Part shown: positions 40-60,643 of the stretch, one piece after another
Layout of the letters: each line of letters opens with the position of its first letter
Numbering within the stretch: position 1 is the stretch's first letter
Assembly (NCBI RefSeq): GCF_988243305.1
Contig: NZ_OZ547136.1
DNA: 64,000 nucleotides
Direction: 5' to 3' (one strand)
The notes under the pieces: generated by a model
The model's input: the letters and a program-made list of their open reading frames with translations, nothing else
Database searches by the model: none
What the model was told of the DNA's origin: nothing
Program-made: the position numbers and the translations under genes

Positions 40-163
40 CAGGCATTCCTCAGGTGATTGTCATTTTTGACGAAAACATGCCGATGAAATGTCATTTTCG
101 ACACTCATCGACACGCCCATCCCCAAACAGGCGTAACGCCTGCAAAACGGGCAAAGCCTCAGC

Positions 164-625
164 TCATGCTGCCGGGCTTTGTCCCTTTACCAGTTGGCTT
201 AAATTCACCGGCACATTGTTTTCAATGGCGGTGTATAAGCTGTCGTAAACGCCAGCGATTTTTTCGAGATAGTGTTCCAGAACCTGTTCGCGATCGCGGA
301 TGTTGACCTTGCCATCAATCATGCCGTCAATGCTCAGTTGCGCCTGCGCAATCCGCTGTTTGTCTTCACCATCTTTTGTTTCGACGTAATACTCGATGGT
401 GTGGCTGTTAAAGCCATCCGCCAGGGTGACGTAAATGCGAAAATGTTCAAAAAGGACGAAACAGAGTTCTTTGTCCGGCGCGCAGCTCATGGCGTGATGC
501 AGGCGCGCTTTCGATAACGTGATCCCCTGAACCAGCGAATTGCAGTAGATGTGCCACTGGTCCTGTAGGCGACGATGCCGCTGTGCGATGTAATCGGCTT
601 TCTCGCTTATTTCCCAAATAGTCAT
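164..625 (-). CDS. hycA: Formate hydrogenlyase regulatory protein HycA
   Basis: 153-aa ORF MTIWEISEKADYIAQRHRRLQDQWH...; divergent from hypA as in the hyc/hyp locus. Confidence 0.9.
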   Translation of the reverse strand: MTIWEISEKADYIAQRHRRLQDQWHIYCNSLVQGITLSKARLHHAMSCAPDKELCFVLFEHFRIYVTLADGFNSHTIEYYVETKDGEDKQRIAQAQLSIDGMIDGKVNIRDREQVLEHYLEKIAGVYDSLYTAIENNVPVNLSQLVKGQSPAA

Positions 626-662
626 TGTCAGGTTACCCGTTTAACAGAGATGCCAGCTTTAA

Positions 663-678
663 GCATTTTTTGTGCCAA
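663..678 (-). promoter_or_regulatory. Candidate sigma54 (-24/-12) promoter for the hyc operon
   Basis: Reverse complement reads TTGGCACaaaaaaTGC, i.e. GG-N10-GC spacing typical of sigma54 promoters, about 40 bp upstream of the hycA start; hyc is known to be FhlA/sigma54 dependent. Confidence 0.5.
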
Positions 679-790
679 CTTTTAATTTATTGTTATTAAA
701 GCGATTTTTAAGCTAAAGATGAATTTCGTCGCCGTGTCGACGTGTCATTTCGACATCATCGACATTATTCACCGCAGGGATAATCAACAC

Positions 791-806
791 TGGCACAATT
801 ATTGCT
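791..806 (+). promoter_or_regulatory. Candidate sigma54 (-24/-12) promoter for the hyp operon
   Basis: TGGCACaattatTGCT with GG-N10-GC spacing, about 30 bp upstream of the hypA ATG. Confidence 0.5.
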
Positions 807-836
807 TGTAGCTGGCAATAGTTAATGGGAGGCGAT

Positions 837-4527: not shown

Positions 4528-6606
4528 ATGTCATATACACCGATGAGTGATCTCGGACAACAAGGGTTGTTCGACATCACTCGGACACTATTGCAGCAGC
4601 CCGATCTGGCCTCGCTGTGTGAGGCTCTTTCGCAACTGGTAAAGCGTTCTGCGCTCGCCGACAACGCGGCTATTGTGTTGTGGCAAGCGCAGACTCAACG
4701 TGCGTCTTATTACGCATCGCGTGAAAAAGACACCCCCATTAAATATGAAGACGAAACTGTTCTGGCACACGGTCCGGTACGCAGCATTTTGTCGCGCCCT
4801 GATACGCTGCATTGCAGTTACGAAGAATTTTGTGAAACCTGGCCGCAGCTGGCCGCAGGTGGGCTATACCCAAAATTTGGTCACTATTGCCTGATGCCAC
4901 TGGCGGCAGAAGGGCATATTTTTGGTGGCTGTGAATTTATTCGTTATGACGATCGCCCCTGGAGCGAAAAAGAGTTCAATCGTCTGCAAACATTTACGCA
5001 GATCGTTTCTGTCGTCACCGAACAAATCCAGAGTCGAGTCGTTAACAATGTTGACTATGAGTTGTTATGCCGGGAACGCGATAACTTCCGCATCCTGGTC
5101 GCCATCACCAACGCGGTGCTTTCCCGCCTGGATATGGACGAACTGGTCAGCGAAGTCGCCAAAGAAATCCATTACTATTTCGACATTGACGATATCAGCA
5201 TTGTCTTACGCAGCCACCGTAAAAACAAACTCAACATCTACTCCACTCACTATCTTGATAAACAACATCCCGCCCACGAACAGAGCGAAGTCGATGAAGC
5301 CGGAACCCTCACCGAACGCGTGTTCAAAAGCAAAGAGATGCTGCTGATTAATCTCCACGAGCGGGACGATTTAGCCCCCTATGAACGCATGTTGTTCGAC
5401 ACCTGGGGCAACCAGATTCAAACCTTGTGCCTGTTACCGCTGATGTCTGGCGATACCATGCTGGGCGTGCTGAAACTGGCGCAATGCGAAGAGAAAGTGT
5501 TTACCACTACCAATTTGAATTTACTGCGCCAGATTGCCGAACGTGTGGCAATCGCTGTCGATAACGCCCTCGCCTATCAGGAAATCCATCGTCTGAAAGA
5601 ACGGCTGGTTGATGAAAACCTCGCCCTGACCGAGCAGCTCAACAATGTTGATAGTGAATTTGGCGAGATTATTGGCCGCAGCGAAGCCATGTACAGCGTA
5701 CTTAAACAAGTTGAAATGGTGGCGCAAAGTGACAGTACTGTTCTGATCCTCGGTGAAACTGGTACAGGTAAAGAGCTGATTGCCCGCGCGATCCATAATC
5801 TCAGTGGGCGTAATAATCGCCGCATGGTCAAAATGAACTGCGCGGCGATGCCTGCCGGATTGCTGGAGAGCGATCTGTTTGGTCATGAGCGTGGGGCTTT
5901 TACCGGTGCCAGCGCCCAGCGTATCGGTCGTTTTGAACTGGCGGATAAAAGCTCCCTGTTCCTCGACGAAGTGGGCGATATGCCACTGGAGTTACAGCCG
6001 AAGTTGCTGCGTGTATTACAGGAACAGGAGTTTGAACGTCTCGGCAGCAACAAAATCATTCAGACGGACGTGCGTCTAATCGCCGCAACTAACCGCGATC
6101 TGAAAAAAATGGTCGCCGACCGAGAGTTCCGTAGCGATCTCTATTACCGCCTGAACGTATTCCCGATCCACCTGCCGCCACTACGCGAGCGTCCGGAAGA
6201 TATTCCGCTGCTGGCGAAAGCCTTTACCTTCAAAATTGCCCGTCGTCTGGGGCGTAATATCGACAGCATTCCTGCCGAGACGCTGCGCACCTTGAGCAAC
6301 ATGGAGTGGCCGGGTAACGTACGCGAACTGGAAAACGTCATTGAGCGCGCAGTATTGCTGACACGCGGCAACGTGCTGCAGCTGTCATTGCCAGATATTG
6401 TTTTACCGGAACCAGAAACGCCGCCTGCCGCAACAGTTGTCGCTCAGGAGGGCGAAGATGAATATCAGTTGATTGTTCGCGTGCTGAAAGAAACTAACGG
6501 CGTGGTTGCCGGGCCTAAAGGCGCTGCGCAACGTCTGGGGCTGAAACGCACGACCCTGCTGTCACGGATGAAGCGGCTTGGAATTGATAAATCGGCATTG
6601 ATTTAA
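4528..6606 (+). CDS. fhlA: Formate hydrogenlyase transcriptional activator FhlA (sigma54-dependent)
   Basis: ORF contains MSYTPMSDLGQQGLFDITRTLL..., GAF region, sigma54 AAA+ motifs (GETGTGKE, GAFTGA) and C-terminal HTH; start placed at internal ATG giving MSYTP. Confidence 0.92.
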   Translation: MSYTPMSDLGQQGLFDITRTLLQQPDLASLCEALSQLVKRSALADNAAIVLWQAQTQRASYYASREKDTPIKYEDETVLAHGPVRSILSRPDTLHCSYEEFCETWPQLAAGGLYPKFGHYCLMPLAAEGHIFGGCEFIRYDDRPWSEKEFNRLQTFTQIVSVVTEQIQSRVVNNVDYELLCRERDNFRILVAITNAVLSRLDMDELVSEVAKEIHYYFDIDDISIVLRSHRKNKLNIYSTHYLDKQHPAHEQSEVDEAGTLTERVFKSKEMLLINLHERDDLAPYERMLFDTWGNQIQTLCLLPLMSGDTMLGVLKLAQCEEKVFTTTNLNLLRQIAERVAIAVDNALAYQEIHRLKERLVDENLALTEQLNNVDSEFGEIIGRSEAMYSVLKQVEMVAQSDSTVLILGETGTGKELIARAIHNLSGRNNRRMVKMNCAAMPAGLLESDLFGHERGAFTGASAQRIGRFELADKSSLFLDEVGDMPLELQPKLLRVLQEQEFERLGSNKIIQTDVRLIAATNRDLKKMVADREFRSDLYYRLNVFPIHLPPLRERPEDIPLLAKAFTFKIARRLGRNIDSIPAETLRTLSNMEWPGNVRELENVIERAVLLTRGNVLQLSLPDIVLPEPETPPAATVVAQEGEDEYQLIVRVLKETNGVVAGPKGAAQRLGLKRTTLLSRMKRLGIDKSALI

Positions 6607-6650: not shown

Positions 6651-7079
6651 ATGGCAGTTTCAGCAAGAAATCAATTAACCGGAACGGTTAGCGCAGTAGC
6701 AATGGGCGCTGTGAATGATGAAGTAGAACTGACGCTGGCAGGTGGTGCAAAACTGGTGGCAATTGTGACTCACAGCAGCCAGCAGGCTCTTGGTCTGGCA
6801 AAAGGGAAAGAAGCGATTGCCCTGATTAAAGCCCCGTGGGTCACGCTGGCAACGGAAGACTGTGGACTGAAATTCTCTGCTCGCAACCAATTTGCTGGCA
6901 GCGTGTCGACAATCACCGAAGGCGCAGTGAACGCCACTGTCCATATCAAAACGGATGCGGGTTTTGAAATTGTGGCAGTGGTAACAAATGAAAGTCAGGA
7001 TGAAATGAAACTCACCACTGGCTCGCGCGTTATTGCATTGATCAAAGCATCAGCCATCCTGATTGCCACCAAAGCGTAA
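6651..7079 (+). CDS. Tandem TOBE/Mop-domain (molbindin-like) small cytoplasmic protein, putative molybdate-binding
   Basis: 142 aa from MAVSARNQLTG...; two internally repeated halves (SARNQLTGTVSAV... and SARNQFAGSVSTI...); strong SD AAAGGAGG 6 bp upstream of the ATG. Confidence 0.75.
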   Translation: MAVSARNQLTGTVSAVAMGAVNDEVELTLAGGAKLVAIVTHSSQQALGLAKGKEAIALIKAPWVTLATEDCGLKFSARNQFAGSVSTITEGAVNATVHIKTDAGFEIVAVVTNESQDEMKLTTGSRVIALIKASAILIATKA

Positions 7080-31001: not shown

Positions 31002-32093
31002 TCATGCCTCGCCATTATTACGAACCCAGGATTTTAACTGTTCTAAAGTAGGCATTTGTTTAACTTGAGCAGTAATTGGGTCTACATCAGATAAGCTGAA
31101 TTGCGCAGCAGCTCCGTTCAGACCATATCCATTGGCAACGCGATCCCAATATTGATTAAACGCCTGTATAGACGGTTGCAAAAAGCCATCTTTCGCTTTA
31201 ACAGCTTTTTCAAAAGCATTTGCCATAGAAAGTGGCATATCGGAGAAATTAACCATTACCATATCCGCAGGGTTAAAAGCGGCATAAGTACGCTGTTTTG
31301 CTCCAGGGACCTCTGTTGCCAGCATATGAACAACATTGGTTGCAATTTCCAGAGCCTGCTCCCTGGAGGCACCACCTAAATTTTCCTGAAGTTGAGCGAG
31401 GTTAATGTTGGCGTAACGATAAAAAACACCCGATGAAAATTCCTGAGTTCCCAGATGTGCAGAACCTTGTTCCTGTAAATCATCTACAGCGGTGAACCAG
31501 TCAATATCTGAATCAACCTGATGAGTAGTGATCGCATGCGCAATGGACATTGCACCATCAACTTTTCCCAACTCACTCATCATGCCGCTGGTTGCCATTC
31601 TTCCGCTAAGCGCAATATCAACACCCTGCTGTAAATTCACACGTATGGCGGCAATATCTTCCTTAAGAACTTTGAGCAGCTTTTTATCATCCAGATTATC
31701 AGCCTCTGCTTTTGCAACCTGCTCACAGAACCAGGCTATTTCTCCCACAACCCAGGGAGTAACCGCATCGGCAGAAATCTTTTCGGCTTCATCAACTAAT
31801 TTACCGGAGAGCAGCGCTAATGTCTTATCGATGATTTTTTGGTCAAAACGTTCACCAAGTTTTTGCCGAAGAACATCACGTAATTGTGCAAGATGAATTG
31901 TTCTGAGACTGGATTCACCAATATTTTGTGCGTAATAATCACTTTTACGCATCGCACGTTTAAGGCTTTGACTTGAAATTCTTACTCGTCTTTTCCCGCC
32001 GAAAATAGCGTCTTTCTGCATGTTCATATCGTCGCGGTTCAGACATGAAGGGCTGTGAGAGATCAGAACATGAATATTGATAAAGTTAGACAT
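31002..32093 (-). CDS. casC: Cascade backbone subunit Cas7e (CasC)
   Basis: 363-aa [52 protein letters not shown]... Confidence 0.95.
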
Positions 32094-34504: not shown

Positions 34505-37171
34505 TTATTTGGGATTTGCAGGGATGACTCTGGTCATCCCTTCATCCCGAGTGTAGGTAATAACAATATTATTACCCTGCCAGATCCATCCATCCTGATT
34601 CTGTTTCCCTTCCAGCCAAAGTAACCCATCTTCATCTACTACTTCAGAAAAACTACGTTTCCAGGTGAAGGGTACATTGACGCGATTAAGTGCTAACGCC
34701 TCATACTGCTGTTCATGACTTAGGTCCTCGTAGACCTGGCCATCGAGCAGTTGTTTACCTGAAGACGTTTGTACATAAGGCAATAATGGCAGGCTCATTT
34801 CCCCATCCCTCGTTACCGCAAGAATGGTTTCATCGTTATCCTGCAAGCTATATTCTTCAGCCCACTGCAGAACCTTACGAGCCTTGAACCTTTTTTCACA
34901 CTCGGCGCTTTCAAACTTATCCATGCCTTTGATGACCCATTCTGGCTCATCCATTTCCGCATCATCGTAAATGCTATCCAGCCATTGCCGGTAGGCATCA
35001 GGGAAAAATAAGGATGCTCCATTAAGTTCCTCAATATGTTGCTGCGTCCGCCACATGACTCTAACGTTGCTATAAATATGCTCATGTCGTCCGTAACCTT
35101 CGCCATCAGGCAGCAAAATGGTGGCAAGAGGAATCTCAAAACCAACGGGGCGATATTTACGATGATGGCGATGTAAACGGCCCAATCGTTGGAAAAGCAA
35201 ATCTGCGGGACAATGCTGAGTAATTAACCAATCAAAATCAACGTCGAGTGATTGTTCCACGACCTGTGTGGCAACAAGTATTCTTCCAACATTTCGCTCC
35301 CCATTTTTCCCAAAATTACTAATAACACGATTCTCTTTTTCACGGCGATCGTTCAGCGTAAAGCGCGCATGAAACAAATCTATATCTACTTGCGTGTTAT
35401 TTAGTTCCTTTAACCGTTGGTGGCATAGTTGTGCAACATCAACCAAATTGCAGATAAGACAGACTTGTGCACCCGCATTTGCCGCTGCGATCATTCGCTC
35501 TAACATCGTAAGGTCAGGTAACATGTCAGCTAAATAAATAGGTTCTGGCTGAATCGAAAAGCGGGGCGGGAGTTGTTCTGGATGAGCTAACAGATCAAAA
35601 CGTTGCGCACCATTCACACCTCGCCAGTTAATGAGTGGATATGCGGAGTTATTTTCCTCTGGATCTGTATGCAGACCATAAGTATCCAGAAGTTTCTGTT
35701 TTTGTTTCATTGGTAGAGTTGCGGAAAGAAGAATAACACTCCCCCCCACATCAGCCTGAGCCTTGAGCACAGCCTCCAGCAAGCCGTTCATATACGTGTC
35801 GTAAGCATGAACTTCATCAACAATTAAAACACTTCGACCAATTCCCAAACCACGGATAAAGCGGTGTTTAACTGGCAATACCGATATCAACACCTGATCA
35901 ATCGTGCAAACGCCTATTTGCCCAAGAAACACTTTCTTATTGCTTTGTGACAACCATTGGCAACACTGAACCCACGCTTCTTCTTGCCCCTGCTCAGTAA
36001 ATGCGCGTGATTTTATTGATTGAAAAAGGTGGTTAAAACGTGAATTACCATGAGCAAGAATAAGATTTGGGGAGGTAAATAAACGGCTCGCGTTCGCTTC
36101 CATTCTGCTGAGCATTGCATTTGCAGTAGCTTGTGTAGGGAGGGCAAAAATAACACTATCCGCAAGTTGTTGGTCAATAAGTTTCCAGGCATAGGCCAGC
36201 GCTGTTTCGGTTTTACCTGATCCCGTAGGTGCCTCAATCACCGTCAGCCCGGGAGCTGTAGGAAGAGCATCAACCAACACCTGTAATTGTCTTGGTTGAT
36301 AGCCATTGTCCAGTAAGGCATGTACGCCGTCATAACTACGCTTATTTGATACAAGGCCACTCAACTCAAGTACCCGACACGCATCCTGTTGTCTATCCTG
36401 AAAATATTTTCTTAGCGCTTGTATGCCTGAAGGTGCATCTTCTTTGAATAGAAAGGTATCCGTTGTGGTCCAGGAACCTAACCAGTCAGCAAGCGAGCAA
36501 AAACCTGCTAACAATGATGAACAATCAGGTGGTATATCGTTTATAGATAACCCGGCTGGTGTTAAAAATAATGCTTCGAGTACAGATATCCACTCCTCAC
36601 GAGCCTGTTTATCTTGCGCAGCATAAGATGCCAGAGAAGCTGGCATTTCCCAACGCGACTTATCTTGATCCTGGGAATGTAATATAAAACCATGATGTCC
36701 TGTAACGGCCTCTACCCAAGGAAACCAGGACTCATAAGGATGAGGAGCGGCATCAAAAAAACTGAAAAAATCCCCGGGAGATTGCTCTGAAAGTGAATCC
36801 TGGTTAAACCAATACAGACCGGCTGCACCATGATTAAATTTACGGCACATTTGTGTTGATGGACCATTAAGTGATGGCGTTGCAGGATTTAATTTCAGCC
36901 AACTTTCTGCTGATTTATATTGGAATCGTATATCAAACTTTCCGATATCATGAAGGGCAATGAAAAATAACAGCCAGGCTTTCACCTTCTGTTTTGATAG
37001 CATTTCATTTCGGCAAAAAGCATTTTGTAGTACGACTGATTGATCCCACCAGCAATCTGCAACAGCTGCAACATCCAGGCAATGATAAATCAACAGATGA
37101 ATATCATTTCCTTTCGTCAGGCTTTTTGAGGATTTCCCCCAGTAATGACATATATATTTAAAAGGTTCCAT
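34505..37171 (-). CDS. cas3: CRISPR-associated nuclease/helicase Cas3 (type I-E)
   Basis: 888-aa ORF MEPFKYICHYWGKSSKSLTKGNDIHLLIYHCLDVAAV... with HD domain followed by DEAD/DEAH helicase motifs (APTGSGKT, DEVH). Confidence 0.95.
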   Translation of the reverse strand: MEPFKYICHYWGKSSKSLTKGNDIHLLIYHCLDVAAVADCWWDQSVVLQNAFCRNEMLSKQKVKAWLLFFIALHDIGKFDIRFQYKSAESWLKLNPATPSLNGPSTQMCRKFNHGAAGLYWFNQDSLSEQSPGDFFSFFDAAPHPYESWFPWVEAVTGHHGFILHSQDQDKSRWEMPASLASYAAQDKQAREEWISVLEALFLTPAGLSINDIPPDCSSLLAGFCSLADWLGSWTTTDTFLFKEDAPSGIQALRKYFQDRQQDACRVLELSGLVSNKRSYDGVHALLDNGYQPRQLQVLVDALPTAPGLTVIEAPTGSGKTETALAYAWKLIDQQLADSVIFALPTQATANAMLSRMEANASRLFTSPNLILAHGNSRFNHLFQSIKSRAFTEQGQEEAWVQCCQWLSQSNKKVFLGQIGVCTIDQVLISVLPVKHRFIRGLGIGRSVLIVDEVHAYDTYMNGLLEAVLKAQADVGGSVILLSATLPMKQKQKLLDTYGLHTDPEENNSAYPLINWRGVNGAQRFDLLAHPEQLPPRFSIQPEPIYLADMLPDLTMLERMIAAANAGAQVCLICNLVDVAQLCHQRLKELNNTQVDIDLFHARFTLNDRREKENRVISNFGKNGERNVGRILVATQVVEQSLDVDFDWLITQHCPADLLFQRLGRLHRHHRKYRPVGFEIPLATILLPDGEGYGRHEHIYSNVRVMWRTQQHIEELNGASLFFPDAYRQWLDSIYDDAEMDEPEWVIKGMDKFESAECEKRFKARKVLQWAEEYSLQDNDETILAVTRDGEMSLPLLPYVQTSSGKQLLDGQVYEDLSHEQQYEALALNRVNVPFTWKRSFSEVVDEDGLLWLEGKQNQDGWIWQGNNIVITYTRDEGMTRVIPANPK

Positions 37172-37477
37172 TAATAGCCTCCCTGTTTTTTTAGTATTAT
37201 CGATGATATCAGTGGACTATTTTTCGATGCTGCTCATAAATATCGAATTACAGTGATATACACATGTCTTGCCTCCCTGCAAAGAAGAGACTAACATTCG
37301 AATTGCTTAGGTTCGAACGCTGGCCTCAGGTTGATAGAAATATCGCCTGGGGCTTTTGTCCATCTGGAACCTCGCGAATGCTTAACGCCAGACAGCCTCA
37401 AGCACCCAACGCCATTCTATACCTGATAATTCTTCCAGCGGCGTTCACGTTTAAAATCAGGAATGCTGCTCGCAAAA

Positions 37478-37512
37478 TAAAAACGCCCCCATCATTTCTG
37501 ACAGAGGCGTTT
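37478..37512 (-). terminator. Candidate terminator downstream of cysH
   Basis: AACGCC...GGCGTT inverted repeat followed on the minus strand by TTTATTTTG; the loop is long so this is weak. Confidence 0.3.
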
Positions 37513-37529
37513 AATTTATCCGGCAATAT

Positions 37530-38264
37530 TTACCCTTCGTGTAACCCACATTCTCTTTTTAAGCCAAAGAAACGCGTTTCTTCTTCCGCCATGCCGGGTT
37601 CCCATTTACGGGTTGTATGGGTATCACCGACCGATAAATATCCTTCATCCCATAATGGGTGATATTTCAGGCCATGTTTTTGCAGGTACTGATAAATAGT
37701 TCGGTTATCCCAGTCGATAATCGGCAGCACTTTAAATACGCCACGCTGAATTGCCAGCACCGGTAAATTGGCGCGGCTGCCGGATTGTTCACGGCGCAGG
37801 CCAGCAAACCAGGTTTGCGCATTCAGTTCTTTCAGCGCCCGGTTCATCGGTTCGACTTTGTTGATGTCATTGTACTTTTCAATGCCTTCAACGCCCTGCT
37901 CCCATAGTTTACCGTAGCGTGCTTCCTGCCAGGCGGCGCTTTCGGTAGCGCGGTACACTTTCAGGTTGAGCTTGAGTTTGTCCGTTAACTCGTCAATAAA
38001 GCGGTAGGTTTCCGGGAACAAGTAACCCGTATCGGTGAGGATCACTGGAATATCCGGGCGAATCTGATTCACCAGATGCAGGCTCACCGCCGCCTGAATG
38101 CCAAAGCTGGAAGAAAGTACATATTCACCGGGCAGATTATCCAGCGCCCAGGCAACGCGGCCTTCAGCGTCCAGTTTTTCCAGTTCGGCGTTAGTTTCCG
38201 CCAGCGCCAGAATGCGATCTACCTTCGGCAGTTCGTTCAGGGCGTTTAGATCGAGTTTGGACAT
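37530..38264 (-). CDS. cysH: Phosphoadenosine phosphosulfate (PAPS) reductase
   Basis: ORF contains [44 protein letters not shown]...; start placed at the ATG giving MSKLD (the track ORF extends upstream through the REP element). Confidence 0.93.
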
Positions 38265-40050: not shown

Positions 40051-41849
40051 TAGTAGACATCTCGCTGATAACGGCGCTCTACGCGCAGCTCACTTAAAAA
40101 TTCATCCGCCGCTTCGGTGTCCATGCCACCAAATTCGGCAATCACTTCCAGAAGTGCCTGCTCAACATCTTTCGCCATGCGATTAGCGTCGCCGCAGACA
40201 TAAATGTGGGCACCGTCATTGATCCAGCGCCACAGCTCCGCGCCCTGTTCGCGCAGTTTGTCTTGTACATAAACTTTTTCTTTTTGGTCGCGCGACCAGG
40301 CAAGATCGATGCGGCTCAATACGCCTTCTTTCACGTAGCGCTGCCACTCCACCTGGTAGAGGAAATCTTCCGTAAAGTGCGGGTTGCCAAAGAACAACCA
40401 GTTTTTACCCGGCGCTTCGTCAGCGGCGCGCTGCTGCATAAAGGCGCGGAACGGCGCGATGCCGGTGCCTGGGCCAATCATAATCACCGGGGTTTCTGGG
40501 TTGGCTGGCAGGCGGAAGTTGTCGTTATGTTCGATAAATACGCGGACTTCGCCCTCTTCTTCCACGCGGTCCGCGAGGAAGCTGGAGGCACCACCGGCAC
40601 GGGCGCGGCCTTCCACGTCGTAACGCACCACACCAACGGTAACGTGCACTTCGTTCTCGACTTCCGCCTGCGAGGAGGCGATGGAATACAGGCGCGGGGT
40701 CAGCGGGCGCAACAGGTTAATCAGCGCTTCGGCATCCAGTTGCGCCGGAGAGAAACGCACCATGTCGACAATCGGCGTGGTCGCGGCGTAATGCTGTAAC
40801 TTCGCTTTATCGCCCACCAGCGGCAGCAGCGTTTCGCTGCGGGTAAGCGTGGCATAGTTCTCAACAATGTTGGCGGTGTTGACGGTCAGTTCGAAGTGCC
40901 ACTGTAGCGCTTCGTTCAGAGGCAACGTTTTGCCCTCGACGGTGACAGGTTCATCACCTTTCAGCCACAGCAGTTCGACAAGTTCTTTCACCAGTGCCGG
41001 ATCGTTCTGATACCAGACGCCCAGCGCGTCACCCGGCTGGTAACGCAGGCCCGAGTCACCTAAGTCAATTTCGATATGGCGAACGTCTTTTTCAGAGTTA
41101 CGCCCGGTAATTTTCTGGTTAACAGAGAGGCTCGCCACCAGCGGCGCGTCTTTGCTGTACGGGCTGGTGTGGATTTCATTTACCGCGCCAGTAGCGACGG
41201 ATTGCGAAGGTGCCGCGACAGGCGCACGCGATTTAAGCGCATCAACCACGCGGGCGCGCCACTCGATGGCAGCAGCCTGGTATTCAACGTCGGCATCGAC
41301 ACGGTCGAGCAGGCGTTCACCGCCCAGTTCCGCCAGCTTGCTGTCAAAATCTTTCCCGGACTGGCAGAAAAATTCATAAGAGCTATCGCCGAGGCTAAAC
41401 ACGGCAAATGCGGTGTTTTCCAGCTTCGGCGCTTTTTTGGAGAACAGGAACTTATGCAGCGCGACGGCTTCTTCCGGCGGTTCCCCTTCTCCTTGCGTTG
41501 ACGTCACCACGATAAGCAGTTTTTCGCTGGCGATTTGTTTGAATTTATAGTCGCCCGCGTTCACCAGCTTAACGTTCAGTTTTGCCGCCAATAAATCATC
41601 GCGTAACGCTTCAGCAACCCGGCGCGCATTGCCGGTTTGTGAAGCGGAGATAATAGTTATACCCGGCATTTCTGCGGCGGGCGCTGGCGTCGCTGCAAGC
41701 GCAGCTGGCTGCTGGTTGAGCACGCCCCAGAAATAGCCAGAAACCCAGGCAAGCTGGGTGGGAGTTAAATCGGTCGTGGCCGCCTGAAGGCGTGCCAGTT
41801 GCTCCGGGTTCAACGGAAGCAACGCGGAAGGTGGGACCTGTGTCGTCAT
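40050..41849 (-). CDS. cysJ: Sulfite reductase flavoprotein alpha subunit
   Basis: 599-aa [45 protein letters not shown]... Confidence 0.95.
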
Positions 41850-47913: not shown

Positions 47914-49368
47914 TTATTTTTCAATCGGATAGATAGTACCCGTATTCATAATGCCGTTAGGATCGAACTGCTTTTTCAGCCCTTCCAGCAACGCCCACGC
48001 GCTGCCGTGTTCCAGCTTGCTCCAGTGAACGCGATGTTTACCAATACCGTGGTGGTGCACCATCGAACCGCCGAGGCGAATGGTTTCTTCGCAGATGATT
48101 TTGTTGAGCGGATTGTGGTACTTGTCGATTTCCTCTTCCGGCTTACAGTCAACAACGTTGTAGTCGTAAACGAAGTACATGTTGGTGCCGTTCTGGTAGC
48201 TGTGAGAGGAGTGACCGCCCAGCATGGTGATGTCGTCGGCGTGCGGGAACTCGGTACGAATACGGTTAATAACGCTTTCGTAGATTTCGTGAATGCAGCT
48301 CCAGCAGCCGGACACTTCGGTGGTAAAGCCCATGTTGCCGGTTTTGAGGATCTGCACACGTTCGGCAGCTACTTTATCCGGTCCCCAGTTCAGGTTGTTA
48401 AACCAGGTTTCGATCAGCTTGCTGTCCACTCGCTGGCATTGCGGGTAACGTGCCACGATTTCAGCAATCCCTTCGCCCGTCGCCTTCGCAATGCGAGGGT
48501 TACCTTCAGCCATAAAGATCAGCACGCATTTTCCGTCAGCAAAATGGGTGAAGTGTTGGGTGCCATCTTCAGCGTCATACAAACGAGCGATCGACGGACG
48601 ATACCCTTCCACCATGATTTCACGCAGGATGTTGAAGCCGGTTTTCATGTCTTCCAGGATATAGCCGTAGAAGAGGTTGTTTTCCGGGATGAACTTAAAG
48701 ATTTTCACAGTTACTTCAGTGATATAGCACAATGCACCTTCGTTGCCGATGATGATGTGACGAATGTCCGGGCCTGCCGCGCGGCGTGGTACGTTTTTAA
48801 TGCGTGTTACGGTGCCATCAGCCAATACTGCTTCCAGACCAACGACCATATCTTCGATTGCGCCGTAGAGTGTGGAGAACTGCCCGATACTGCGGGTTGC
48901 TACCAGGCCGCCCATCTGCGCCAGCGGCTTTGACTGCGGAGAATGCCCCGTGGTGTAACCTTTTTCACGCAACGCGTTTTCCAGCACTTCCAGCGGAACT
49001 CCGCATTGCGCCGTGGCCTGCATATTCTCAATATCAATATTAATGATTTGATTCATGGCAGAGCCGTCGAGCACCACCGAGTTTTCCACAACGGTTTCCA
49101 GCCCACCTTCGGTAGCGGAAGCACCGGTACGCGGCACACCGTTAATTTTGTGCGCATTCATAAAATTCAGCACACGGGATACTTGTTCTGTGGAACCGAG
49201 TTTTACGACCGCTGCCGGAATCGGCAAAGTATAAATGCCATGAATATCCGGAAATTTGCGAAAACGGTCAATACTGTTCTTCTTTAATACTGTTTCATCG
49301 GTAATTACGCGATCTGCACCAACAATTTCCTTTAGCTGGTCGACAATCGCTGCGCGAGATAAAGACAT
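47914..49368 (-). CDS. ygcU: FAD-linked oxidase (alkyldihydroxyacetonephosphate synthase / D-lactate dehydrogenase-like)
   Basis: 484-aa ORF MSLSRAAIVDQLKEIVGADRVITDETVLKKNSIDRFRKFPDIHG... Confidence 0.8.
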   Translation of the reverse strand: MSLSRAAIVDQLKEIVGADRVITDETVLKKNSIDRFRKFPDIHGIYTLPIPAAVVKLGSTEQVSRVLNFMNAHKINGVPRTGASATEGGLETVVENSVVLDGSAMNQIINIDIENMQATAQCGVPLEVLENALREKGYTTGHSPQSKPLAQMGGLVATRSIGQFSTLYGAIEDMVVGLEAVLADGTVTRIKNVPRRAAGPDIRHIIIGNEGALCYITEVTVKIFKFIPENNLFYGYILEDMKTGFNILREIMVEGYRPSIARLYDAEDGTQHFTHFADGKCVLIFMAEGNPRIAKATGEGIAEIVARYPQCQRVDSKLIETWFNNLNWGPDKVAAERVQILKTGNMGFTTEVSGCWSCIHEIYESVINRIRTEFPHADDITMLGGHSSHSYQNGTNMYFVYDYNVVDCKPEEEIDKYHNPLNKIICEETIRLGGSMVHHHGIGKHRVHWSKLEHGSAWALLEGLKKQFDPNGIMNTGTIYPIEK

Positions 49369-49437
49369 AGTAATTCCTTCCTGATAATAAAAATGGAATA
49401 ATCATTAATAAGAGAAAACAGAAACCACCGTTATGGA

Positions 49438-50223
49438 TTAGCGCACTAAATAACCGCCATCAACCACTAATAAATGTCCGTTGACATAATTCGATGCCGG
49501 ACTTGCGAGGAATACGGCTGCGCCCATTAAATCCTGAGTATCGCCCCAACGGTTTGCCGGAATATGATCAAGAACGCGCTGGTTAGTTTCTGGATTACTA
49601 CGGGTCGCCAGAGTGATATCGGTAGCGTAATATCCCGGAGCAATACCATTTACCTGAATATTATATTGACCTAGTTCATCACAATAAGCTTTGGTGAACC
49701 CGGCAAGAGCATGTTTAGTGGCAGAATATGCAGGTGACCATTGTCCACCTAAGTAAGAGAATAATGAACAGATATTAATGATTTTACCGCTTTTCTGCGG
49801 GATCATAATTTTTGCAGCTTCATAGCTTAACTCGAATGCGGCGGTCAGGTTCACATCAATCATCGGGTCCCAGTCGGCACGACCGAAGTCCAGCACCTTA
49901 TTCAGCTTACAAATACCGGCATTGTTAATCAGAATATCGACGGTACCGAAACGTTCGCAACAGGCGGCGATTATCTTCTGCGGCGCGCCTTCTGCGGTGA
50001 TATCCACCTGCATGAAGTCCACCTCAACACCCTGTTTTTCAATCATTTCCTTTGTTTCGCCGTTATCTTTAACGAAGCTTGGAATAAAGATATTTGCGCC
50101 TGCTTTGGCCAGCGCCATGGCAAATGCCTGGCCTAAACCGCTATTCCCGCCGGTAACAATTGCGGTTTTACCTTTCAGGGAGAAAAAATCCATTGAGAAC
50201 GCATTGAGAGATTCGATTGACAT
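49438..50223 (-). CDS. ygcW: Short-chain dehydrogenase/reductase (SDR)
   Basis: ORF contains MSIESLNAFSMDFFSLKGKTAIVTGGNSGLGQAFA (TGxxxGxG) and a YxxxK active-site pattern. Confidence 0.8.
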   Translation of the reverse strand: MSIESLNAFSMDFFSLKGKTAIVTGGNSGLGQAFAMALAKAGANIFIPSFVKDNGETKEMIEKQGVEVDFMQVDITAEGAPQKIIAACCERFGTVDILINNAGICKLNKVLDFGRADWDPMIDVNLTAAFELSYEAAKIMIPQKSGKIINICSLFSYLGGQWSPAYSATKHALAGFTKAYCDELGQYNIQVNGIAPGYYATDITLATRSNPETNQRVLDHIPANRWGDTQDLMGAAVFLASPASNYVNGHLLVVDGGYLVR

Positions 50224-51845: not shown

Positions 51846-53324
51846 ATGTCGAAAAAATACATCATAGGGATTGATGGCGGAAGTCAGAGCACAAAAGTGG
51901 TGATGTATGATCTGGAAGGTAATGTGGTTTGCGAAGGCAAAGGCTTATTGCAGCCGATGCACACGCCAGATGCCGATACCGCAGAACATCCTGACGACGA
52001 TTTATGGGCATCATTATGTTTTGCCGGTCACGATTTGATGAGTCAGTTTGCCGGGAATAAAGAAGATATTGTCGGTATTGGTCTGGGATCCATCCGTTGC
52101 TGCCGTGCGTTATTGAAAGCCGATGGCACGCCAGCTGCGCCGTTGATTAGCTGGCAGGATGCACGCGTTACACGCCCTTACGAACATACGAATCCTGACG
52201 TGGCATATGTCACCTCTTTTTCAGGTTATCTGACGCATCGCTTAACCGGCGAGTTTAAAGACAATATCGCCAACTATTTTGGTCAGTGGCCGGTGGATTA
52301 TAAGACCTGGGCATGGAGTGAAGATGCCGCAGTCATGGAGAAGTTTAATATCCCCCGTCATATGCTGTTTGATGTGCAAATGCCGGGCACTGTTCTTGGG
52401 CATATCACTCCTCAAGCCGCGCTGGCGACACATTTCCCAGCTGGGCTGCCGGTTGTTTGTACCACCAGTGATAAACCGGTAGAAGCACTGGGAGCCGGGT
52501 TACTGGATGATGAAACTGCGGTAATTTCTCTTGGCACTTACATCGCGTTGATGATGAACGGCAAAGCACTGCCGAAAGATCCGGTGGCGTACTGGCCGAT
52601 TATGTCTTCTATTCCGCAAACATTGCTGTATGAAGGTTACGGTATTCGCAAAGGCATGTGGACGGTGAGCTGGCTACGCGACATGTTAGGCGAGTCGTTA
52701 ATTCAGGATGCCAAAGCACAGGATCTTTCACCGGAAGATTTGCTCAACAAAAAAGCGTCTTGTGTGCCGCCAGGCTGTAATGGTCTGATGACGGTGCTGG
52801 ACTGGCTGACCAATCCGTGGGAACCGTACAAACGCGGGATTATGATTGGCTTTGATTCCAGCATGGATTACGCATGGATATATCGTTCGATACTGGAAAG
52901 CGTGGCGCTGACGCTGAAGAACAATTACGACAATATGTGTAATGAAATGAATCACTTTGCAAAGCATGTGATCATTACTGGCGGCGGTTCGAACAGCGAT
53001 CTGTTTATGCAGATTTTTGCCGACGTGTTCAACCTTCCGGCACGCCGTAACGCCATTAATGGTTGTGCAAGCCTGGGGGCAGCGATTAATACGGCGGTAG
53101 GTCTGGGGCTATACCCGGATTACGCAACGGCTGTCGACAAAATGGTTCGCGTGAAAGATATCTTTATGCCTGTTGAGAACAATGCCAAACGCTACGACGC
53201 GATGAATAAAGGCATTTTCAAGGAGTTAACCAAACATACTGATGTAATCCTGAAAAAATCGTATGAAGTGATGCATGGGGAATTGGGGAATGCGGATTCG
53301 ATCCAGAGCTGGTCGAATGCGTAA
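51846..53324 (+). CDS. ygcE: FGGY-family carbohydrate kinase
   Basis: 492-aa ORF MSKKYIIGIDGGSQSTKVVMYDLEGNVVCEGKG... Confidence 0.85.
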   Translation: MSKKYIIGIDGGSQSTKVVMYDLEGNVVCEGKGLLQPMHTPDADTAEHPDDDLWASLCFAGHDLMSQFAGNKEDIVGIGLGSIRCCRALLKADGTPAAPLISWQDARVTRPYEHTNPDVAYVTSFSGYLTHRLTGEFKDNIANYFGQWPVDYKTWAWSEDAAVMEKFNIPRHMLFDVQMPGTVLGHITPQAALATHFPAGLPVVCTTSDKPVEALGAGLLDDETAVISLGTYIALMMNGKALPKDPVAYWPIMSSIPQTLLYEGYGIRKGMWTVSWLRDMLGESLIQDAKAQDLSPEDLLNKKASCVPPGCNGLMTVLDWLTNPWEPYKRGIMIGFDSSMDYAWIYRSILESVALTLKNNYDNMCNEMNHFAKHVIITGGGSNSDLFMQIFADVFNLPARRNAINGCASLGAAINTAVGLGLYPDYATAVDKMVRVKDIFMPVENNAKRYDAMNKGIFKELTKHTDVILKKSYEVMHGELGNADSIQSWSNA

Positions 53325-58279: not shown

Positions 58280-59185
58280 ATGCGCTTAATCTTTATTCTA
58301 CTTGCTTTGTGGAGCCTTCCCGGGCTTGCCCAGCAAATTGCTGTGCCGGAGCTGCGCCAACAAGTGACTGATATTACTGGTACGTTAAGCACGTCTGAAC
58401 AGCAATCGCTAACGCAGCAGCTGCAGGATATTACACATAAAACACGGGCGCAGGTCGCTGTATTAGTAGTGCCGTCCACCGGAGACGATTCCATTGAACA
58501 ATATGCAGCACGCGTTTTTGATAGCTGGAAACTGGGAGATAAGCAGAGAAACGATGGTATTTTACTTCTGGTTGCCTGGGAGGAGCATGCTGTTCGTATT
58601 GAGGTTGGCTACGGGCTGGAAGGGGTGGTTACCGACCTGCAAGCGGCGAAGATTATCAGAGATATTTTGATCCCTGCCTTCAAAAGTGATGACCTGATGG
58701 GTGGATTAACACTGGCAAGCGAAAATATCGGCGCGCTTCTGTTGAATGGTGAATTATCGGAAGACAGGGGGGATTATTACAGTATCAATCCCTTTATTCC
58801 ATTATCGCTTGCTGTAATTATATTGCTGGCGGTACTTTCATATTTTATTGTTTTTACCGATCCGTCGAATTTACCCTGGATCACTCTCACTGGCGCCATT
58901 TACGGGATGGTATTCCTCTATGTTGCCGAGCCAGGACCATGGACCAATTTAATCGTTGCCTGCGGTATGCTCACGCCTTTTGCCATCGTACCACTGCTTA
59001 TTTTTTGGCTTATCGTTAATAAAAAGCTACGCGCTAAATACAAGAAGCTCGGTAAAGAAAGAGCTTCAAGAAAAGGTTCTTCTTCATCCTCTTCCGGTGG
59101 CGGCTCAAGTGGCGGAGGCTCAGGCGGTGGCTTTAGCGGCGGGGGCGGTTCTTCTGGCGGTGGCGGCGCGTCCGGTCGCTGGTAA
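58280..59185 (+). CDS. ygcG: TPM-domain membrane protein, paralog 3 (most likely the ygcG ortholog by position next to eno)
   Basis: Signal peptide MRLIFILLALWSLPGLA, TPM block highly similar to paralog 1, TM helices, long Ser/Gly tail ending GGGGSSGGGGASGRW; symbol tentative. Confidence 0.7.
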   Translation: MRLIFILLALWSLPGLAQQIAVPELRQQVTDITGTLSTSEQQSLTQQLQDITHKTRAQVAVLVVPSTGDDSIEQYAARVFDSWKLGDKQRNDGILLLVAWEEHAVRIEVGYGLEGVVTDLQAAKIIRDILIPAFKSDDLMGGLTLASENIGALLLNGELSEDRGDYYSINPFIPLSLAVIILLAVLSYFIVFTDPSNLPWITLTGAIYGMVFLYVAEPGPWTNLIVACGMLTPFAIVPLLIFWLIVNKKLRAKYKKLGKERASRKGSSSSSSGGGSSGGGSGGGFSGGGGSSGGGGASGRW

Positions 59186-59217
59186 CTCAACCATAAAAAA
59201 TGCCAGCCCGAAGGCTG

Positions 59218-60643
59218 TAATGCCGATCAGTTAAGGATCAGTTGACCGATCCAGTGGCTGTGTAAGAATCCGGAAACGCTCACTTGTTTCCGGATTTTTT
59301 TATGCACATTGGACAGGCTCTTGATCTGGTATCCCGTTACGATTCTCTGCGTAACCCACTGACTTCTCTGGGGGATTACCTCGACCCCGAACTCATCTCT
59401 CGTTGCCTTGCCGAATCAGGTACTGTAACGCTACGCAAGCGCCGTCTTCCCCTCGAAATGATGGTCTGGTGTATTGTTGGCATGGCGCTTGAGCGTAAAG
59501 AACCTCTTCACCAGATTGTGAATCGCCTGGACATCATGCTGCCGGGCAATCGCCCCTTCGTTGCCCCCAGTGCCGTTATTCAGGCCCGCCAGCGCCTGGG
59601 AAGTGAGGCTGTCCGCCGCGTGTTCACGAAAACAGCGCAGCTCTGGCATAACGCCACGCCGCATCCGCACTGGTGCGGCCTGACCCTGCTGGCCATCGAT
59701 GGTGTGTTCTGGCGCACACCGGATACACCAGAGAACGATGCAGCCTTCCCCCGCCAGACACATGCCGGGAACCCGGCGCTCTACCCGCAGGTCAAAATGG
59801 TCTGCCAGATGGAACTGACCAGCCATCTGCTGACGGCTGCAGCCTTCGGCACGATGAAGAACAGCGAAAATGAGCTTGCTGAGCAACTTATAGAACAAAC
59901 CGGCGATAACACTCTGACGTTAATGGATAAAGGTTATTACTCACTGGGACTGTTAAATGCCTGGAGCCTGGCGGGAGAACACCGCCACTGGATGATACCT
60001 CTCAGAAAGGGAGCGCAATATGAAGAGATCAGAAAACTGGGTAAAGGCGATCATCTGGTGAAGCTGAAAACCAGCCCGCAGGCACGAAAAAAGTGGCCGG
60101 GACTGGGAAATGAAGTGACAGCCCGCCTGCTGACCGTGACGCGCAAAGGAAAAGTCTGCCATCTGCTGACGTCGATGACGGACGCCATGCGCTTCCCCGG
60201 AGGAGAAATGGCGGATCTGTACAGTCATCGCTGGGAAATCGAACTGGGATACAGGGAGATAAAACAGACGATGCAACTGAGCAGGCTGACGCTGAGAAGT
60301 AAAAAACCGGAGCTTGTGGAGCAAGAGCTGTGGGGTGTCTTACTGGCTTATAATCTGGTGAGATATCAGATGATTAAAATGGCGGAACATCTGAAAGGTT
60401 ACTGGCCGAATCAACTGAGTTTCTCAGAATCATGTGGAATGGTGATGAGAATGCTGATGACATTGCAGGGCGCTTCACCGGGACGTATACCGGAGCTGAT
60501 GCGCGATCTTGCAAGTATGGGACAACTTGTGAAATTACCGACAAGAAGGGAAAGGGCCTTCCCGAGAGTGGTAAAGGAGAGGCCCTGGAAATACCCCACA
60601 GCCCCGAAAAAGAGCCAGTCAGTTGCTTAACTGACTGGCATTA
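59218..60643 (+). mobile_element. IS4 insertion sequence (1426 bp) with imperfect terminal inverted repeats and a flanking direct repeat
   Basis: Left end TAATGCCGATCAGTTAAGGATCAG, right end reverse complement TAATGCCAGTCAGTTAAGCAACTG; CAGCCCGAAGGCTG present immediately outside both ends (59204-59217 and 60644-60657); length equals the canonical IS4 length. Confidence 0.9.
59302..60630 (+). CDS. insG: IS4 transposase
   Basis: 442 aa from [40 protein letters not shown]..., recognised as the IS4 transposase. Confidence 0.9.

Follow-up and report, generated by a model that had tools for sequence, protein, structure and literature searches.

The hyc and hyp operons of E. coli are transcribed away from each other across a short intergenic gap, and both are turned on by the same activator, FhlA, when formate builds up. 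This arrangement raises two questions: which DNA elements in and around the gap carry the control, and does a single enhancer serve both promoters? We addressed these questions in a 64,000-nucleotide stretch of DNA (the window; NCBI RefSeq contig NZ_OZ547136.1) that includes the gap. We are confident that positions 626-836 are the E. coli hycA-hypA control region, in which two divergent sigma-54 promoters flank an FhlA-type enhancer and IHF probably gives help to hyc. The existence of these promoters and their FhlA/formate control is already known and indeed textbook material. The hyc-hyp divergent control region of E. coli K-12 is said to have been described as early as 1990.

Locus and gene neighborhood

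The window is a piece of the E. coli chromosome. Its first 1500 bases match 5,425 of 5,426 complete E. coli genomes, several of them at 100%. Positions 626-836 are exactly the gap between hycA, which starts at 625 on the minus strand, and hypA, which starts at 837 on the plus strand, and hence the gap measures 211 bp. The identities of these two genes in the preliminary description hold, since the same names are annotated on an E. coli record identical to the window. On that record, hypA is followed by hypB and then by hypCDE and fhlA, and the operon composition hypABCDE-fhlA is also given in PMC8743547. The coordinates of genes and control elements are collected in Table 1.

Compared to K-12 MG1655, the hycA-hypA gap carries a single substitution (position 702, C versus A), which lies outside every motif, while the hycA-hycB gap is identical. 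Because of this, data published for K-12 apply directly to the sequence described here; a window position equals the K-12 v3 coordinate minus 2,849,810. The substitution at 702 sits in a poorly conserved A/T spacer that separates the IHF-like site from the enhancer. An Rfam scan found RNA families to be absent in and near the control region, and a sigma-70 scan of the region gave one weak match, not above the level of shuffled sequence.

Table 1. Genes and control elements at the hyc-hyp locus, in window positions
Feature	Position	Strand	Sequence, basis or remark
hycB	ends at 39	minus	annotation on identical E. coli record
Second FhlA-type cluster, in the hycA-hycB gap (40-163)	59-115		TGTCATTTTTGACG (59-72) and TGTCATTTTCGACACTCATCGACAC (90-114)
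hycA, first gene of the hyc operon, annotated regulator of FhlA	164-625	minus	ORF and annotation
hyc sigma-54 -24/-12 element, TGGCAC-N5-ATGCT	662-677	minus	TGGCACAAAAAATGCT; 1 consensus mismatch
IHF-like site	683-695	minus	TAACAATAAATTA; differs from WATCAANNNNTTR at one position
Left, less conserved part of the central cluster	721-738		gaaTTTCGTCGccgTGTC; alignment gaps, 20-50% column conservation
Central FhlA-type enhancer (UAS) core, candidate	739-771		GACgTGTCATTTCGACAtcaTCGACAttattca; conserved block in the 81-sequence alignment
hyp sigma-54 -24/-12 element, TGGCAC-N5-TTGCT	791-806	plus	TGGCACAATTATTGCT; 0 mismatches, GG to GC exactly 10 nt
hypA, first gene of hypABCDE-fhlA	837-1187	plus	ORF and annotation
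fhlA, activator gene, after hypE	4528-6606	plus	record label 'flhA: formate hydrogenlyase transcriptional activator'

The remainder of the window includes content that varies among strains, namely a TOBE-domain gene after fhlA (6651-7079), a hydroxyarylic acid decarboxylase BCD cluster, together with a MarR regulator, within the mutS-rpoS variable region (17161-19982), and a copy of IS1397 between ygcP and ygcQ (48418-49766). Two CRISPR arrays (31247-31821 and 58959-59292) and a complete type I-E cas operon are present too. A full-length match to the Rfam family 'sok antitoxin (CssrC)' (RF01794; 37251-37407, minus strand, 104 bits, E 1.3e-22) falls within casA (cse1) as annotated (coding sequence 36120-37682, minus strand) and does not adjoin the annotated Hok/Gef gene at 40674-40826.

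Two divergent sigma-54 promoters

The preliminary description placed a GG-N10-GC element on each strand of the gap, back to back. Both elements are located as claimed, and they are the two best matches to a sigma-54 matrix in the 64 kb. The reverse complement of 663-678 reads TTGGCACAAAAAATGC, with exactly 10 nt from GG to GC. Each element points at its own gene, the distance from its 3' end to the start codon being 36 nt for hycA and 30 nt for hypA. For scoring, we used a weight matrix derived from 186 promoters (PMC7658346 Table 2) and applied it to both strands, or ~128,000 positions. The hyp element ranks first with 18.7 bits and the hyc element second with 15.0 bits; only two other positions in the window reach at least 14.7 bits. 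From these counts, we estimate a chance of ~1e-5 that two such matches fall in one 211-bp gap with each facing its own gene. The strict pattern TGGCAC-N5-TTGCW is matched exactly only once in 64 kb, at the hyp site, versus 0.13 expected, and allowing one mismatch yields 4 matches versus 3.4 expected, which for the bare pattern is not significant.

One of the two other high-scoring positions, TGGCACATCTACTGCA, lies within hycA itself (541-556, minus strand). At 14.95 bits it is as good as the hyc promoter, and we rejected it as a conserved promoter. The stretch encodes W-H-I-Y-C; elsewhere His is replaced by Arg or Gln, the Cys codon is interchangeably TGC or TGT, and in other genera the score is only 4-10 bits. 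Because the match decays freely at both synonymous and replacement positions in other genera, we regard it as a by-product of coding. Its flanks are shared with the hyp promoter (inverted repeat I2). The other position, TGGCACGCCAGCTGCG at 52124-52139 on the plus strand (14.7 bits), is antisense to the MFS-transporter gene ygcS, on the minus strand, and is probably a chance match.

Given that the one-mismatch pattern is about as frequent as in shuffled sequence, and that an equally good match arose inside hycA as a by-product of coding, one could ask whether the GG-N10-GC matches, or the repeats between them, are themselves chance features with no promoter or enhancer function. The top two matrix ranks speak against this, as does conservation. 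We scanned for HycA, taking one genome per species, and obtained 80 loci from >15 genera, including Escherichia, Salmonella, Citrobacter, Enterobacter, Klebsiella, Kluyvera, Raoultella, Lelliottia, Kosakonia, Pseudocitrobacter and Pseudescherichia; addition of the window gave an alignment of 81 sequences. In all 80 loci, hypA is divergent from hycA, across a gap of 188-223 bp, and both sigma-54 elements are present with GG and GC invariant. The hyc element lies 34-37 nt from the hycA start in 80/80 loci, and the hyp element lies 28-34 nt from the hypA start in 79/80 (42 nt in the remaining one). Thus, both elements keep a fixed position while the bases flanking them drift: the TGGCA and GC columns are invariant in the 81 sequences, and the spacer and flanks vary.

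Six conserved islands, with drifting sequence between them, can be recognized in the alignment of the 81 gaps. The one nearest hycA is its ribosome-binding region, followed by the hyc -12/-24 element, an A/T-rich TTTAA...TTGA segment, a block corresponding to 739-771, the hyp -24/-12 element and the hypA Shine-Dalgarno sequence. We also noted a 27-nt inverted repeat (651-677 versus 791-817, 81% complementary) that runs past the -12 elements to the start-site region (GCTT..AGCTGGCA). We dropped it as a functional requirement, as its extension past the core motif is confined to Escherichia.

Published maps of sigma-54 binding bear on the same bases. The ChIP-seq study by Bonocora et al. 2015 (PMC4591121) reports two intergenic sites here, OS27 at hycA (TTGGCACAAAAAATGCT, minus strand, fold-above-threshold 91) and OS28 at hypA (CTGGCACAATTATTGCT, plus strand, fold-above-threshold 201), and both are marked as experimentally confirmed promoters in EcoCyc, as quoted in that paper. 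The element sequences in the window equal the OS27 and OS28 motifs exactly, with motif centers at 670 and 798, 128 bp apart as published. The same authors predict start sites 19 bp beyond the motif center. Applied here, this rule predicts a hyc start near 651 (minus strand) that precedes the hycA ATG by 26 nt, and a hyp start near 817 (plus strand) that precedes the hypA ATG by 20 nt. In vitro, gSELEX with RpoN holoenzyme picks the hycA/hypA spacer (Shimada et al. 2021, PMC8743547). The motifs, their ranks in the window, their conservation and the occupancy by sigma-54 all rest on the window itself or on cited data for identical sequence. With occupancy of the identical sequence seen in vivo as well as in vitro, the ChIP-seq data and the conservation effectively refute the idea of chance features, to which we attach almost no weight.

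Similar observations have been made in Salmonella Typhimurium, where ChIP-chip showed that sigma-54 holoenzyme binds the orthologous hycA and hypA sites (Samuels et al. 2013, PMC3844500). There, hyc rose 26-fold and the hyp operon 5.6-fold in a sigma-54-dependent manner. The orthologous divergent pair (STM2853 and STM2854) has the same layout, with elements TGGCATGGAAAATGCT and TGGCATAAATATTGCT; it differs from the E. coli pair in its gap, which measures 208 bp, and in both -24 elements, which read TGGCAT rather than TGGCAC.

A repeat cluster and an IHF-like site between the promoters

Where does FhlA act? The preliminary description pointed to reiterated TCGTCG, TGTCGAC and TCGACA motifs at about 715-770 as candidates for the FhlA upstream activating sequence. 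TCGTCG occurs at 726-731, TGTCGAC at 735-741, and TCGACA at 750-755 and 759-764. TCGWC/GWCGA occurs five times within 56 nt, compared to an expectation of 0.19 per 56-nt stretch (Poisson P ~2e-6), and no other 56-nt stretch of the window has four or more. Together, the TCGWC/TGTC repeats span 726-771 and form the sole such cluster in the 64-kb window.

A palindrome at 727-742 (CGTCGCCGTGTCGACG) was reported by a simple terminator scan, having a 5-bp stem with 4 G-C pairs, and it could in principle work at the RNA level, as an intrinsic terminator or another hairpin, and not as a site for protein binding. However, a single such match is not above the number in shuffled sequences (mean 1.8), the tail TGTCATTTCG is not a T-run, and the palindrome falls in the left, least conserved part of the cluster. 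Moreover, both promoters fire away from it, and hence it should not be transcribed. We rejected the hairpin for its shuffle-level frequency and for its location where no transcript should pass; that it functions as RNA is extremely improbable.

Conservation narrows the enhancer candidate. Columns 739-765 are conserved at 80-100%, compared to 20-50% for flanking columns, and TGTC at 743-746, G761 and CA at 763-764 are invariant in the 81 sequences. The sequence at 721-738 is kept in Escherichia, Salmonella and some Citrobacter and is deleted or replaced in other genera. Thus, of the region originally proposed, only the core at 739-771 is conserved, and several genera lack the TCGTCG at 726-731.

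The core was also picked out by an FhlA matrix of 14 positions built from 13 footprinted sites (PMC7658346). It contains the second best match in the window (TGTCGATGATGTCG, 751-764, minus strand, 16.2 bits), a score that is partly circular, since sites from the hyc region are probably among the 13. Upstream of fdhF and hydN, the same 14-mer matrix gave no match that reached 9 bits. We also tried the 16-mer FhlA consensus CATTTCGTACGAAATG and discarded it as a whole-site pattern: the control region is not above background, and the best matches in the window (11-12/16) fall elsewhere.

Other FhlA/formate targets provide a further comparison. FhlA binds upstream of fdhF and hyc (PMC11291172); a 2025 review places fdhF, hyc and hydN-hypF under FhlA/formate control; and Salmonella sigma-54 regulon tables, those of PMC3844500 among them, list hyc, hyp, hydN-hypF and fdhF as FhlA/formate targets. 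Like hyc and hyp, the E. coli fdhF, hydN-hypF and hyfA genes each have a sigma-54 -24/-12 element. In contrast to the back-to-back hyc/hyp pair, these are single promoters, and the arrangement of motifs differs between clusters. Both fdhF and hydN have repeats rich in TGTCA, TCGTCA and GTCGA, located 50-110 nt upstream of their sigma-54 promoters; the likeness is illustrated by ACATGTCATCGTCA of hydN versus the hyc-region consensus ATGTCATTTCGTCATCGTCGACATCGTCA. Based on the matrix score, the conserved block and this likeness, the central cluster is a good candidate for an FhlA enhancer.

The IHF-like site falls in A/T-rich DNA that separates the hyc -24 element from the enhancer core. In 55/81 sequences, the best match to the IHF consensus at the aligned place, on the minus strand, has one mismatch or none, and in 27 the match is exact; one caveat here is that the A/T-richness of the region makes weak matches easy. 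A near-identical module, made up of the IHF-like site plus the -24 element, is found at K-12 hydN (TAACAGTAAATTAAAAACTGGCAT) and at hyc (TAACAATAAATTAAAAGTTGGCAC, 683-700). IHF reportedly binds between the hyc enhancer and the hyc promoter.

A second FhlA-type cluster and the control of hyp

Published regulon data agree with the preliminary description that the layout reflects formate/FhlA control of both operons. That one enhancer serves both is not established, however, because the hycA-hycB gap contains a second FhlA-type cluster (59-115). It has the best FhlA matrix match in the window (17.2 bits, at 90-103) and another of 11.7 bits at 59-72, although the matrix probably includes these sites itself. 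Across all 80 related loci, its GTCATTTTTGACG and TCGACAC blocks vary little or not at all, and the TGTCATTTTCGACACTCATCGACAC segment is nearly identical to TGTCATTTCGACATCATCGACAT of the central cluster. A direct repeat, D1, was also noted at this cluster. We found no sigma-54 core between this cluster and the start of hycB, a distance of only ~20 nt that leaves no room for one. The cluster belongs to the same control system as the hycA-hypA gap and is probably the known distal FhlA site. A full-text literature search returned nothing relevant on the hycA-hycB site or on site sequences.

The hyp enhancer has reportedly been mapped to the hycA-hycB region. Papers from the Böck laboratory are reported to show that FhlA binds in this gap and that the site acts as the hyp enhancer.

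These features suggest that the two clusters may divide the work. The central core at 739-771 would act on hyc only, and hyp would be activated from 59-115, a site within the transcribed hyc operon that lies ~700 bp upstream of hypA. The distal cluster has the highest matrix score, is conserved at least as well as the central one and lacks a downstream sigma-54 promoter of its own, and the reported mapping of the hyp enhancer agrees with such a role. Geometry points in the same direction. Upstream of hyc, 58-90 nt separate the central core from the -24 element, as at hydN and fdhF, and only 19-51 nt separate it from the hyp -24 element. Because it is closer to the hyp -24 element than the corresponding clusters are at hyc, hydN and fdhF, the role of the central cluster at hyp is uncertain.

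Spacing data complicate this picture. Between the divergent -24 elements, the GG-to-GG distance is 94 bp in 3 sequences, 104-105 bp in 19 and 114-118 bp in 59, values that correspond to ~9, 10 and 11 helical turns at 10.5 bp. We then measured enhancer distances from a consistent anchor, TGTCAT(T)TCG. The anchor lies 45, 56-60 or 67-68 bp from hyc and 47-49 or 57-60 bp from hyp, and the anchor-to-promoter distances shift in steps of about 9-12 bp. Changes in spacing map to at least four lineages, namely the Citrobacter freundii complex, Kosakonia, Enterobacter sp. ENT03 and Pseudescherichia. One caveat is that the 81 sequences are related to one another, and hence the apparent quantization by helical phase represents only ~4-5 independent indel events. 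The pattern is that expected if face-of-helix alignment between enhancer and polymerase is under selection. That the distance to the hyp -24 element is quantized too suggests that phasing with hyp matters, which argues against a central cluster devoted to hyc.

Alternatively, one FhlA oligomer on the central cluster could drive both promoters, as the layout in the preliminary description implied, with the hycA-hycB cluster having some other role, such as boosting or acting as a roadblock. Stepping of the anchor distances to both promoters by about one helical turn, for a total of 9, 10 or 11 turns, fits this idea, as does the inverted repeat that the two promoters form around the cluster in Escherichia. 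On the other hand, the extension of that repeat past the core motif is not kept outside Escherichia, the 19-51 nt that lead to the hyp -24 element leave little length for a loop unless the DNA is bent, and the very strong conservation of the distal cluster is left unexplained. We consider such sharing a real but less probable alternative. A stricter version, in which one FhlA oligomer and the two closed complexes join in a single phased assembly, the central enhancer serving hyc and hyp at once and 59-115 having a different role, seems unlikely. A division of work between the clusters, which we favor slightly and which is somewhat more likely than a shared bidirectional enhancer, would refine the main explanation rather than replace it.

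Taken together, the elements suggest the following sequence of events. Sigma-54 RNA polymerase would be pre-bound as a closed complex at the hyc element, for hycABCDEFGHI, and at the hyp element, for hypABCDE-fhlA, and the closed complex alone would be unable to start transcription. When formate builds up in fermentation, the enhancer-binding ATPase FhlA would bind the TGTC/GACA-rich enhancer or enhancers, including the core at 739-771, and reach the polymerase via DNA looping, with ATP hydrolysis opening the promoter. At hyc, the loop would probably be aided by an IHF-induced bend in the A/T-rich DNA at 683-695. One promoter would thereby yield hycA and the hydrogenase-3 genes, and the other the maturation genes and fhlA. 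Because hyc begins with hycA and hyp ends with fhlA, the region would act back on its own activator through two feedback loops, one negative and one positive. In this scheme, FhlA and IHF occupancy at these exact bases, the start sites and the choice of cluster that serves hyp are inferred or taken from earlier work.

How does this locus compare to known systems? It is the same locus as the E. coli K-12 hycA/hypA promoters (OS27/OS28, PMC4591121), with equal motifs and equal 128-bp spacing, and the window represents an allele from a natural isolate. Two sigma-54 sites on opposite strands of one intergenic region are likewise found at E. coli zraP/zraS, where they are 154 bp apart (OS38, OS39) and where both the activator (ZraR) and the signal differ from those of hyc/hyp. 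At zraP/zraS, the activator sites lie between the two sigma-54 promoters. We know of no second enhancer cluster inside either of those operons.

Work on the hyc/hyp sigma-54 promoters, and on how FhlA and formate control them, goes back to 1990, and genome-wide maps of sigma-54 have confirmed them again, and hence our analysis adds little as discovery. Its value is one of validation, in that a reading of the sequence alone correctly named the locus, both promoters and the enhancer region. The results may be of use in engineering formate-inducible hydrogen production and in studies of enhancer geometry. Comparison among the Enterobacteriaceae additionally yielded an invariant enhancer core, spacing in helical turns, a second FhlA-type cluster, and a module of IHF-like site plus -24 element that hyc has in common with hydN.
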